A DNA stretch of 34,465 nt. It comes from a virus (Duplodnaviria; Heunggongvirae; Uroviricota; Caudoviricetes). The translations under genes and the position numbers were made by a program. Shown here piece after piece: positions 9,756 to 12,983 of the stretch (within the stretch, counting starts at the first letter, position 1; each line of letters starts with the position of its first letter). Location: IMG/VR virus record IMGVR_UViG_2869924733_000010; one strand, given 5' to 3'. The notes under the pieces were generated by a model. The model was not told where the DNA came from. It saw nothing but the letters and a program-made list of their open reading frames with translations, and searched no databases.

Positions 9756-10332
9756 ATGACCAAGACAAATAGGCACAACTTTCCTCCAAGCGTTGTAGGT
9801 AAGGTAGCAGAGCGCGCTACATATATTTGTAGCAATCCCTCTTGTCATAGGGTAACAATCGGCCCGGATCAATTGGCGGAAAATCTTTCTATCAAGACGG
9901 GTGAGGCGGCGCATATCTGCGCGGCGAGCCCTGGCGGACCGCGCTATGACATGTCTCAGTCAGAAACAGAGCGGAAGAGCATAAAAAATGCTATATGGTT
10001 GTGCGGAGCTTGTGCTGATTTAGTTGATAAGAATGGCGGTATGGGCTACCCCGCCGAGTATTTGCGAAAATGGAAACGTGACCACGAATCACTAATGAAG
10101 GAGTGCTTGGAGGGAGGAAAGAGGCTAATGTTTCAATTTCTATCGCATCGCCCAGACGAGAAAATTGCTCTGCGGTTGATCCATTTATTGGAAGACAAGA
10201 GTTCTCTTTATCTGCCATATGCTCAAGAGGATCCAGCACGAGTCTCGGATTCTTTGAAGGAGCTCCGACTCTCTCTTACGGCGATTCGCTCCGAGATTGC
10301 ACCTGAGTCTCCGCTATCGTTGATCGTCGAGT
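9756..10332 (+). pseudogene. 5' part (codons 1..192) of an HNH-like zinc-finger protein gene, interrupted by IS911
   Basis: CSNPSCH ... AAHICAASPGGPRYD ... NAIWLCGACADLVDKN matches the HNH pattern CxxC..H..N..CxxC with the last His replaced by Ala; the ORF tail after residue 192 is IS911 sequence. Confidence 0.6.
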
Positions 10333-10667
10333 TGAAGTGGCACACTGAATTTGGCCACCTGAACAGAGGTGATATGCTCACCTCAGAACAACACAGGTGC
10401 TCCAATGAAAAAAAGAAATTTTAGCGCAGAGTTTAAACGCGAATCCGCTCAACTGGTTGTTGACCAGAAATACACGGTGGCAGATGCCGCCAAAGCTATG
10501 GATGTTGGCCTTTCCACAATGACAAGATGGGTCAAACAACTGCGTGATGAGCGTCAGGGCAAAACACCAAAAGCCTCTCCGATAACACCAGAACAAATCG
10601 AAATACGTAAGCTGAGGAAAAAGCTACAACGCATTGAAATGGAGAATGAAATATTAAAAAAGGCTAC

Positions 10668-11888
10668 TGTAGATTCAATCTGTCAATGCAACACCCCTTT
10701 CAATTATCTCTTTCGGTGTTTTGAACTTCAGTGTCTTTCTCGGTCTGTTGTTTAGCTGAGCAGCAACCAGATCTAGTTCATGTTGAGTATATTGGGCAAG
10801 ACATGTCTTTTTAGGAAAGTACTGCCGAATTAGCCCATTTGTGTTCTCATTTGTTCCCCGCTGCCAAGGACTCTGAGGATCGCAGAAGTAAACTTTAACG
10901 CCGGTGCTGACAGTAAATTCTAGATGTCTGGCCAGTTCCATTCCTCTGTCCCATGTCAGTGATTTTCTGAGTTCTGACGGTAAACTCAGGAATTTGTCGG
11001 TAAGAGCCTGATTTACTGAGACAGAATCTTTGCCCCTGAGTCTAAGGATGATCGTATAACGTGATTTTCGGTCTACAAGTGTGGCTATATGAGAGTTTTT
11101 TGTACCTGAGACTAAATCGCCCTCCCAATGCCCCAGAGAGCGTCTGTTATCGATATTTCGGGAACGTTCGTGAATTGGTGTTCCGTTCACTATGTTAATC
11201 GTACCTCTTTCGCCTTTGCGGGTATGACGCCTGCCATGGCGAAGGCTATGCGACCGTCGCAGATGCTGTATATTCAGGTGGTGTAGCGCTTCACGGCTAC
11301 GAAAGTACAGCGTTTTATAAATTGTCTCAGGTGATATTCGCAGCGTTTTTTGACGTGGTTTTGTTCGCCTTAACCATCCTGATATTTGCTCTGGAGACCA
11401 TTTCATCTCCAGCTTTTCCAGAACAAGCTTTCGCAATGGTAAATTTTGATCCAGTAAGCACGGTTTTGGCCTTTTCGCCATTCTGTTGGCTCGGTTATTA
11501 GCATCAACAGCTTTGTAATAGCGTCTGCCCCGATTACGCTGAACTTCACGTGAGATCGTCGAAGGACTGCGATTCAGCGCAGTAGCTATCGCACGAATGC
11601 TCATTTTGGCTGACAAACCAGCTCGTATCTCCTCGCGCTCAGACAGTGTCAGGTGAGCTACAGCCCGCTTACGCTCATGGGGTTTTATGCCGCCAGTATC
11701 CCTTAACATAGTGAAGATCGTTCCGGGTTTTGAACCCAGGATATTCGCTATTTCACTGAAGCCTGTTCCGTTCTTCCATAGTTCAAAAACAGAGGCTTTT
11801 TCCTCTGCTGTAAATGTTCGTCTCATTCAAAAAACCTCCGCAACCCCATGTTTTCACATAACTGTTGCGTTGACCAATTGAATCTACA
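10668..11888 (-). mobile_element. IS30 (1221 bp) inserted into IS911 orfA; 2 bp duplication AC
   Basis: Ends tgtagattcaat... and ...attgaatctaca; AC flanking both ends. Confidence 0.9.
10675..11826 (-). CDS. IS30 transposase
   Basis: 383 aa, recognised as IS30 transposase. Confidence 0.9.
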
Positions 11889-11956
11889 ACCGCGCTCTTG
11901 ATGTCAGACTCCCTGAACAGTTCTCGATAATCGGGAAACTCAGAGCGCATTATCCT

Positions 11957-12796
11957 GTGGTCACACTCTGCCAAGTGTTCGGGGTTCATCGCAGCAGCTA
12001 CAGATACTGGAAAAACCGTCCTGAAAAACCAGACGGCAGACGGGCTGTATTACGCAGTCAGGTACTTGAGCTACATGGCATCAGCCATGGTTCGGCCGGA
12101 GCAAGAAGCATCGCCACAATGGCAACCCGGAGAGGCTACCAGATGGGACGCTGGCTTGCTGGCAGGCTCATGAAAGAGCTGGGGCTGGTTAGCTGTCAGC
12201 AGCCGACTCACCGGTATAAACGTGGTGGTCATGAACATGTTGCTATCCCTAACTACCTTGAAAGGCAGTTCGCCGTGACCGAGCCAAATCAGGTGTGGTG
12301 CGGTGATGTGACCTATATCTGGACGGGTAAGCGCTGGGCGTACCTCGCCGTAGTTCTCGACCTGTTCGCAAGAAAACCAGTGGGCTGGGCCATGTCGTTC
12401 TCGCCGGACAGCAGGCTCACCATGAAAGCGCTGGAAATGGCATGGGAAACCCGTGGTAAGCCCGGCGGGGTGATGTTCCACAGCGATCAGGGCAGTCATT
12501 ATACGAGCAGGCAGTTCCGGCAGTTATTGTGGCGATACCAGATCAGACAGAGTATGAGCCGGCGCGGAAACTGCTGGGATAACAGCCCAATGGAACGCTT
12601 CTTCAGGAGTCTGAAGAACGAATGGATGCCGGTGGTGGGTTACGTAAGCTTCAGCGAGGCAGCTCACGCCATAACGGACTATATCGTTGGATATTACAGC
12701 GCACTAAGACCGCACGAATATAACGGTGGGTTACCCCCAAACGAATCGGAAAATCGATACTGGAAAAACTCTAACTCGGTGGCCAGTTTTTGTTGA
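11957..12796 (+). CDS. IS911 OrfB frame (transposase catalytic part)
   Basis: 279 aa ORF recognised as IS3-family OrfB; orfA (from 10405) is split by IS30, so the element is probably inactive. Confidence 0.8.
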
Positions 12797-12804
12797 CCAC
12801 TTCA

Positions 12805-12983
12805 AGTCAATTGTCCGTGCGTGCCGACACTATATGAATTCAACGCCAGATCGGCCGGGCATTGAGGAGCTTAACTTCTCCCTCGGCGCAGTTCGTAAGG
12901 TAGTAGGAATTAACATCGGAGAACTATTGAAACACTATGAAATCCAGGTGAGTCACGAATTGCATTCTATTATTCCTAAATGA
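12805..12983 (+). pseudogene. 3' part of the IS911-interrupted HNH-like gene
   Basis: Removing IS911 and one AGT copy joins ...IVE to SIVRACRHYMNSTPDRPGIEELNF...IIPK in frame, giving a ~250 aa protein. Confidence 0.6.

Follow-up and report, generated by a model that had tools for sequence, protein, structure and literature searches.

What is encoded by a cargo gene that IS911 has split, and why was the gene lost? The DNA in question is the virus record IMGVR_UViG_2869924733_000010 (Caudoviricetes; 34,465 nucleotides, here called the window), in which positions 9756 to 12983 hold the two halves of a gene that we refer to as gene A. A prediction made from the letters of the window (the original prediction) described gene A as an HNH-nuclease-like gene with Ala in place of the last metal-binding His, and proposed that a toxic or defense effector had been inactivated because it was costly to keep. 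We found that gene A is a pseudogene in a Shigella prophage ridden with insertion sequences (ISs). This copy is ordinary; the interest lies in its family, which joins two known kinds of protein, the Cap5-type HNH effector and the ThsG-type DUF6650 protein. Gene A is a cargo gene of the P2 Z/fun hotspot, inactivated by ISs; its intact form would probably be an abortive-infection nuclease gated by oligomerization or by a ligand, and it was probably lost through neutral IS accumulation.

Reconstruction of gene A

The interrupted gene and the elements within it are arranged as follows.

9756..10332, plus strand: 5′ part of gene A, from the ATG at 9756 through codons 1 to 192 and base 1 of codon 193
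10330..10332, no strand: left copy of the AGT target-site duplication (uninterrupted E. coli loci have one AGT)
10333..10667, plus strand: left part of IS911 (left inverted repeat and start of orfA), placed by comparison of the inverted repeats and with the uninterrupted IS911 of a related contig, L085
10668..11888, minus strand: IS30 nested in IS911, with boundaries accurate to about one base; transposase at 10675..11826
11889..12804, plus strand: right part of IS911 (orfB and right inverted repeat), placed by identity to the annotated IS911 transposase
12805..12807, no strand: right copy of the AGT duplication, placed by the junction sequence
12808..12983, plus strand: 3′ part of gene A, from the rest of codon 193 to the stop codon, encoding the remainder of the DUF6650 domain; assigned by the in-frame join

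Joining 9756..10332 to 12808..12983 gave an open reading frame (ORF) of 753 nucleotides and 250 amino acids, which reads ...LIVE-SIVRACRHYMNS...IIPK across the join. An intact Shigella boydii record (EFP4110342.1) is identical to this rebuilt protein over all 250 residues. The 222-amino-acid truncated product is matched exactly by a Shigella dysenteriae record, and a partial S. dysenteriae protein (P0142) is a C-terminal fragment of gene A tagged by IS911. From these records, a Shigella origin of the window is almost certain. Gene A is uninterrupted, its halves contiguous at a single AGT, in 15 of the 5426 complete E. coli genomes (99.2 to 99.8% nucleotide identity). The junctions and these empty sites together confirm the proposed insertion of IS911 after codon 192 with duplication of AGT.

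The IS911 copy begins at 10333 with TGAAGTGG... (in longer form, TGAAGTGGCACAC...) and ends at 12804 with ...CCACTTCA (in longer form, ...GACCACTTCA). Its terminal inverted repeats agree at 24 of 36 positions, and positions 11890-12804 are 99.8% identical to copies annotated as “IS3-like element IS911 family transposase.” The element was thus assigned to IS911 by its inverted repeats, 3-bp duplication, orfA and orfB, high identity, and empty site. The nested IS30, which the original prediction did not mention, is 100% identical to annotated IS30 and is flanked by a duplicated AC (10666-67 and 11889-90); L085 lacks IS30 at exactly that point.

The original prediction depended on the existence of intact homologs, and these were found in E. 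coli, S. boydii, and other bacteria. Intact E. coli copies are annotated as a 250-amino-acid “hypothetical protein” or “DUF6650 family protein” (RefSeq/PGAP, WP_073840803.1), and the Klebsiella protein is 96% identical. Stable carriers of intact gene A include E. coli, Klebsiella, Citrobacter, and Serratia, among others.

An N-terminal HNH domain of the Cap5/SPARHA type

Residues 1 to 118 are a zinc-stabilized His-Me (HNH) nuclease domain of the type that serves as the killing module of Cap5 and SPARHA. The 5′ part of gene A encodes this entire domain and the DUF6650 domain up to its 74th residue. Against PADLOC profiles, residues 5 to 119 matched PDC-M68A (6.6e-24), CBASS Cap5 HNH effectors (2e-19 and weaker), and SduA. 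The best sequence match of the N-terminal domain in the PDB was the HNH-APAZ effector of SPARHA (9om4; 2.7e-11), and Cap5 entries 8ysq, 8fm1, and 7rwk were also matched; a literature search on 8YSQ gave nothing relevant. McrA-type restriction enzymes were among the further best sequence and fold matches, and the domain also matched three PHROG families of unknown function. An AlphaFold2 monomer model of a protein 95% identical to the rebuilt gene A product (P0001) had a mean predicted local distance difference test score of 89.4 and a predicted template modeling score of 0.86, and contained the beta-beta-alpha-metal fold. The proposed likeness to HNH nucleases is thus upheld by both the database matches and the model.

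All the motifs on which that proposal was based are present (C25-x4-C30-H31, AAH53I...S-P-GG, and N78-AIW-LC83-GA-C86). In PsCap5, His56 is the general base and Mg is bound by His91 and Asp95 (PMC12141522). When PsCap5 was aligned with gene A, His56 corresponded to His53, Asn82 to Asn78, Cys87 and Cys90 to Cys83 and Cys86, His91 to Ala87, and Asp95 to Asp91. Gene A therefore has the general-base His, the Asn, the four-Cys zinc site (C25, C30, C83, and C86), and the Mg-binding Asp, and has Ala at the position of the metal-binding His. C25, C30, H53, N78, C83, C86, D91, and N93 are invariant in alignments of 31 relatives (45 to 95% identity) and 58 relatives (44 to 95% identity).

A C-terminal DUF6650 domain

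Residues ~120 to 250 are a helical DUF6650 domain, the most informative feature of the protein and one absent from the original prediction. When the rebuilt protein and its neighbors were scanned against local Pfam and NCBIfam profiles, nothing was matched, not even PF20355 (DUF6650); the local Pfam-A scan never reports PF20355, and its negatives for this domain are not to be trusted. Because local Pfam seems unable to report PF20355, the domain was mapped indirectly. PF20355 is precomputed on every homolog in a large protein collection, including gene calls that comprise only the C-terminal 99 to 137 residues. An exhaustive profile search with the C-terminal domain recovered 595 cluster representatives (E ≤ 1e-3), mostly stand-alone proteins of ~160 amino acids; a word-indexed search with the same domain returned only truncated gene calls of the gene A family. 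Alignment of the gene A domain with 31 stand-alone DUF6650 proteins using hhalign gave a 99.9% match (E value, 4.4e-35; 127 columns), and the two groups have invariant Glu, Ser, Arg, Ala-Cys-Arg, Leu-Gly, Arg, Gly, and Pro in common. Stand-alone DUF6650 proteins also have a conserved N-terminal segment, I-x2-R-I-T-G-I-S-x-P-I-F-G-I-S-W.

DUF6650 is the effector domain of type VI Thoeris, in which a TIR protein is paired with the DUF6650 protein ThsG and the signal is 2′ cyclic ADP-ribose (2′cADPR). ThsG has been modeled with AlphaFold 3 (AF3) as a homo-hexameric tube whose protomers have basic pockets between them; how ThsG proteins without transmembrane helices are toxic was called unclear, and HNH fusions receive no mention in that study (bioRxiv 10.64898/2025.12.03.692087). 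Gene A resembles ThsG in its PF20355 C-terminal domain and in the Glu, Ser, Arg, A-C-R, and Arg residues that it shares with stand-alone DUF6650 proteins. In contrast to ThsG, which is DUF6650 alone or with transmembrane helices and is encoded in an operon with the TIR protein ThsB, gene A is an HNH fusion with no TIR partner. Membership in type VI Thoeris was rejected for want of an adjacent operonic TIR gene, and since no TIR partner recurs, gene A is not a canonical type VI Thoeris effector.

The N-terminal additions to DUF6650 include a transmembrane helix (P0267), a SEFIR/TIR-like domain (P0259; PADLOC bSEFIR, 1e-50), and HNH. The set of DUF6650 fusions, including those with larger N-terminal extensions, comprises P0259, P0267, P0185, P0284, P0165, and P0286. 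Three contigs with stand-alone DUF6650 genes were 1.3 to 9 kb long, too short or uninformative with respect to a TIR partner. The full HNH-DUF6650 protein was found in no sequenced phage of the GenBank collection.

Proposed function of the intact protein

Ligand-bound SAVED domains activate Cap5 by assembling its HNH domains into tetramers that have a double active site (PMC12141522), and the HNH domain of SPARHA is activated through filaments (PMC12738770). Given assembly-dependent activation in both relatives, and the predicted oligomerization and nucleotide response of DUF6650, the intact gene A protein would most likely be an assembly-gated HNH nuclease. DUF6650 would act as the sensor and the oligomerization switch, by analogy with the ThsG hexamer and its response to 2′cADPR. 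A ligand or infection cue would drive assembly, and the HNH domains would thereby combine into a composite active site like those of Cap5 tetramers and SPARHA filaments. The metal would be held by the invariant Asp91 and water, instead of the His-Asp pair of PsCap5. Nonspecific degradation of DNA would then stop the infected cell or the invading phage (abortive infection).

A role in defense, as originally proposed, is plausible from sequence comparison: the N-terminal domain matches effector HNH domains of CBASS, SPARHA, and PADLOC systems, the C-terminal domain is DUF6650, and the E. coli allele has been listed by DefensePredictor (Science 2026, PMC13092281). That study newly implicated DUF6650, among other domains, in defense via DS-27 (WP_087896215.1), a validated single-gene system consisting of SMEK_N and a C-terminal DUF6650 domain that HHpred recognized at 88%. 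Its predictions also include WP_059356353.1, the E. coli allele in which gene A is intact, labeled a “Predicted novel defense gene” at a mean log-odds of 5.48. Like gene A, DS-27 (~300 amino acids) is a single gene with an effector-like N-terminal domain and a C-terminal domain reported to be DUF6650, and it has been validated against phage in E. coli; unlike gene A, its N-terminal domain is SMEK and not HNH.

Several observations weigh against this proposal. WP_059356353.1 appears in the DefensePredictor table of predictions and is absent from the tables of screened systems. The gene A family and the stand-alone DUF6650 proteins did not match the single DS-27 sequence in hhalign, and because of this the link between DS-27 and DUF6650 rests on the published assignment. 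The hexamer and its ligand pocket come from preprint AF3 models of ThsG. The Mg-binding His is missing, such that the HNH domain could be weak, Mn-requiring, or noncatalytic, and the bridge glutamate of Cap5 and SPARHA (Glu50 in gene A) is not conserved in the family. Lastly, neither TIR nor any other signal generator recurs beside the gene among 147 neighbors of 30 nonredundant loci.

We compared gene A with the known systems nearest to it. It resembles Cap5 (PsCap5, 8FMF/9DIF; AsCap5, 7RWK) in having an N-terminal HNH killing module followed by a C-terminal sensor domain, and the two HNH domains have the same N-terminal helix, zinc site, general-base His, Asn, and Mg-binding Asp. It differs from Cap5 in that the C-terminal domain is DUF6650 rather than SAVED, no cGAS/DncV-like nucleotidyltransferase gene lies nearby, Ala replaces His91, and the bridge Glu varies. 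We rejected membership in CBASS Cap5, as the PADLOC Cap5 profiles match the HNH part only and no nucleotidyltransferase is among the recurrent families of the 147 neighbors. The SPARHA HNH-APAZ protein (9OM4) has an HNH domain of the same clade, which is activated by oligomerization and cuts double-stranded DNA nonspecifically (PMC12738770); unlike gene A, it has APAZ as the partner domain and a short Argonaute as the sensor, and it keeps the second catalytic His. The PADLOC candidate PDC-M68A, the best match in that database, is of similar length (253 profile positions). Only profile positions 5 to 113 were matched, however, and the C-terminal half was unrelated in all six HNH-DUF6650 proteins scanned, so gene A was not assigned to PDC-M68. 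Proteins annotated as “putative lysogenic conversion protein” in P2-EC46 (AJ512680.1) and Yersinia phage vB_YenM_31.17 (NC_070918.1) share the P2-like cargo position and an HNH domain (37 to 39% identity, residues 1 to 134), whereas their C-terminal parts differ from that of gene A. This HNH-only likeness indicates that the HNH module recurs as P2 cargo with varied C-terminal domains.

Gene A lies in the P2 Z/fun hotspot

The window is collinear with a P2-like prophage that has been annotated in E. coli cM2a, at the trhP/ogrK...yegR locus. Its genes follow the order ogr, D, tape measure, E/E′, tail tube, tail sheath, the cargo genes A, B, and C, and tail-fiber assembly. Gene A thus lies between the tail sheath gene FI and the tail-fiber assembly gene G, in the Z/fun hotspot, as expected for the prophage cargo gene of the original prediction. 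This hotspot is one of two classical cargo sites of P2-like phages (bioRxiv 10.1101/2024.10.15.618418); only the other, the cos-proximal old/tin site, was tested by Rousset et al. (2022). In E. coli the cargo genes encode 250 (A, plus strand), 261 (B, minus strand), and 227 (C, minus strand) amino acids. The other features of the hotspot in the window are as follows.

8532..9684, plus strand: IS630, placed by a gap in the alignment of the window with L001, a 343-amino-acid IS630-type transposase ORF, and the junction sequences
13145..13930, minus strand: gene B, 261 amino acids, intact and convergent with gene A; weakly HEPN-like helical fold
14201..15501, plus strand: ISSfl1 (IS4 family), between genes B and C, placed by an alignment gap and 99.8% identity to annotated ISSfl1
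15594..16277, minus strand: gene C, with an N-terminal transmembrane helix; 227 amino acids in E. coli, 205 amino acids in the window
16357..17683, minus strand: IS2-like element, between gene C and the tail-fiber assembly gene, placed by an alignment gap and ORFs of 301 and 136 amino acids; the name “IS2-like” is based on ORF sizes only

Neither gene B nor gene C matched TIR, and no other family in Pfam, PADLOC, NCBIfam, or PHROG was matched. Immediately past the right edge of the A-B module, 109 bp at 14092..14200 is 99% identical to sequence that is present, without annotation, in another 18 E. coli records (17 chromosomal, one plasmid) from which the module is absent; this segment may be a small repeat or the end of a mobile element.

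Genes A and B travel together in E. coli, Shigella, and Klebsiella as a convergent 2.0-kb module, with ~160 bp between the genes. The Klebsiella block is 94% identical to that of E. coli and Shigella at the nucleotide level. The module occurs in at least four contexts: the P2 hotspot; an island in E. coli AH65 where the 3.4-kb A-B-C block adjoins a type I restriction-modification system and DarTG; and, in Klebsiella, the leading region of an integrative and conjugative element with ArdA and SSB, and an smpB island. Contexts of the homologs at the 30 loci include prophage late regions, integrases, AAA_15/21 ATPases, and methylases. Homologs at 55 to 60% identity (L088-L093 and L007/L087) lie inside lambdoid-type prophages on the strand opposite to their neighbors, adjoining the Q antiterminator, DUF968/DUF1133, and lysis genes, which is a second classical moron position.

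Dependence on gene B or on an external signal

It is possible, at a low probability, that gene A works only with gene B, as a two-gene system in which one partner is the sensor or antidote of the other. The conservation of the module between genera and across its contexts is consistent with such a system, as is the observation that Klebsiella keeps gene B and drops gene C. Nevertheless, the two genes are convergent and therefore do not form an operon. Gene B is never near gene A homologs of ≤77% identity (the 30 loci), and a K. aerogenes homolog of B (45% identical) is found without A, beside DUF2971 and a 165-amino-acid gene. ORF clustering around 38 full-length A homologs detected no conserved neighbor outside the near-identical enterobacterial cassettes, and in the Pfam scan of the 147 neighbors no family was present at more than 4 loci. 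We concluded that the distant relatives of gene A have no conserved partner.

A similarly unlikely explanation is that gene A is a trans-acting (“orphan”) Thoeris-type effector that responds to 2′cADPR or a related isomer, the product of a TIR protein whose gene lies elsewhere in the host or on a different element. The homology to ThsG argues for this explanation, and so does the fusion of DUF6650 to a SEFIR/TIR-like domain in P0259. In one Klebsiella smpB island (L136), a 260-amino-acid TIR_2/ThsB_TIR-like protein (3117..3899, plus strand) and an SRAP protein are encoded directly upstream of the B-A module; the TIR_2 gene is two genes from the module, on the other strand, and is the only TIR gene seen near an HNH-DUF6650 gene. 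However, the other three contexts of the module lack TIR, and no TIR recurs among the 147 neighbors.

A wider version of the assembly-gated nuclease, which we offer tentatively as a possibility, is that DUF6650 is a portable sensing and oligomerizing switch and that HNH-DUF6650 proteins are self-contained prophage nucleases gated by 2′cADPR or a related nucleotide. The signal would come from a TIR protein encoded elsewhere or would arise during infection, and the proteins would be “orphan Thoeris effectors” without a TIR of their own. A sensor role for DUF6650 is supported by the variety of its N-terminal partners (HNH, SEFIR/TIR-like domains, transmembrane helices, and reportedly SMEK).

The HNH active site and Ala87

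Ala at the position of the metal-binding His was correctly noted in the original prediction, according to the alignment with PsCap5; it is no peculiarity of this copy, being conserved in the family. Each of the 31 aligned relatives has either Ala or Ser at position 87. We also examined a wider HNH subfamily drawn from genomes and viral contigs. Among its DUF6650 fusions, position 87 is Ala in 9, Ser in 14, Gly in 6, and His in 10; among proteins with other C termini, it is Ala in 36, Ser in 21, Gly in 17, and His in 9. The Asp four residues after position 87 is conserved across the wider subfamily, with occasional Asn. Two more distant HNH-DUF6650 proteins (P0185 and P0284) have the canonical C-x2-C-H. 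The alternation of Ala, Ser, Gly, and His at position 87, with the Asp retained, suggests that the His ligand is dispensable there.

These data bear on the possibility that the HNH domain is dead by replacement of His with Ala or Ser, and that the protein is a noncleaving sponge for 2′cADPR-type signals (anti-Thoeris) or a DNA-binding regulator. We consider this improbable. The replaced residue is indeed an Mg ligand in PsCap5, the gene is phage borne, phages carry the cyclic ADP-ribose sponges Tad1 and Tad2, and DUF6650 is a 2′cADPR-responsive domain (bioRxiv 10.64898/2025.12.03.692087). However, invariance of His53, Asn78, Asp91, and the four zinc Cys residues over 44 to 95% identity is unexpected for a relic domain, His is one of the alternatives at position 87 both in close relatives and in proteins with many different fusion partners, and a sponge has no need of a fused nuclease fold. 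Some His-Me nucleases, such as I-PpoI and the Serratia nuclease, hold the metal by a single protein ligand. The conservation pattern points to an active site that appears to be still under selection, with a dispensable His ligand.

It is very improbable that gene A encodes a selfish HNH endonuclease of the homing or phage-packaging type. Phages do commonly have HNH genes, and the N-terminal domain matches three PHROG families of unknown function. The best matches, however, are HNH domains of immune effectors (Cap5 and SPARHA) and restriction enzymes of the McrA type. Moreover, gene A occupies a cargo hotspot, on the strand opposite to the tail genes and not beside terminase, cos, an intron, or an intein; it is also found in nonphage islands, and it is fused to DUF6650. 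A homing endonuclease was therefore rejected on context and domain content.

Stepwise decay of the hotspot

The ~9 kb between the tail sheath and tail-fiber assembly genes contains five ISs: IS630, IS911, IS30, ISSfl1, and the IS2-like element. We compared the window with related contigs. L084 and L086, like E. coli, have no IS in the hotspot. L083 has IS630 and ISSfl1 only, lacks the IS2-like element, and has an intact gene A that is 100% identical. L085 has, in addition, an IS911 free of IS30 and the IS2-like element. In the window, IS911 has also received IS30. This series, from no IS through L083 and L085 to the window, gives the relative order of the IS insertions. Annotated ISSfl1 was found in only 9 E. 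coli genomes.

IS630 lies upstream of gene A, 71 bp from its start codon, within the conserved upstream part of the A-B module, and probably separates gene A from its native promoter. A promoter scan upstream of gene A detected nothing above chance. A second cargo gene, gene C, is also damaged, by a frameshift due to a 1-bp deletion in a run of C near window position 15660.

We conclude that gene A was probably lost through stepwise, region-wide IS accumulation, the usual neutral genome decay of Shigella. Such a build-up does not call for selection aimed at gene A itself, and loss of the gene in the Shigella lineage would have proceeded without gene-specific selection. The proposal that gene A was inactivated because it was costly is not supported, given five ISs in 9 kb, a frameshifted gene C, and wide carriage of the intact gene.

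Implications for the HNH-DUF6650 family

HNH-DUF6650 proteins occur without a TIR partner in prophage hotspots and defense islands across many phyla, and gene A has already been flagged by a machine-learning predictor as a likely defense gene. Their architecture argues that DUF6650 is a sensor or assembly module and not the toxic part. The natural series of His, Ala, Ser, and Gly at position 87 offers a gauge of the extent to which the canonical HNH metal site is required, and the 250-amino-acid protein is small and tractable for studying how DUF6650 is triggered. If DUF6650 is indeed a portable switch, this would help to answer how ThsG exerts its toxicity.

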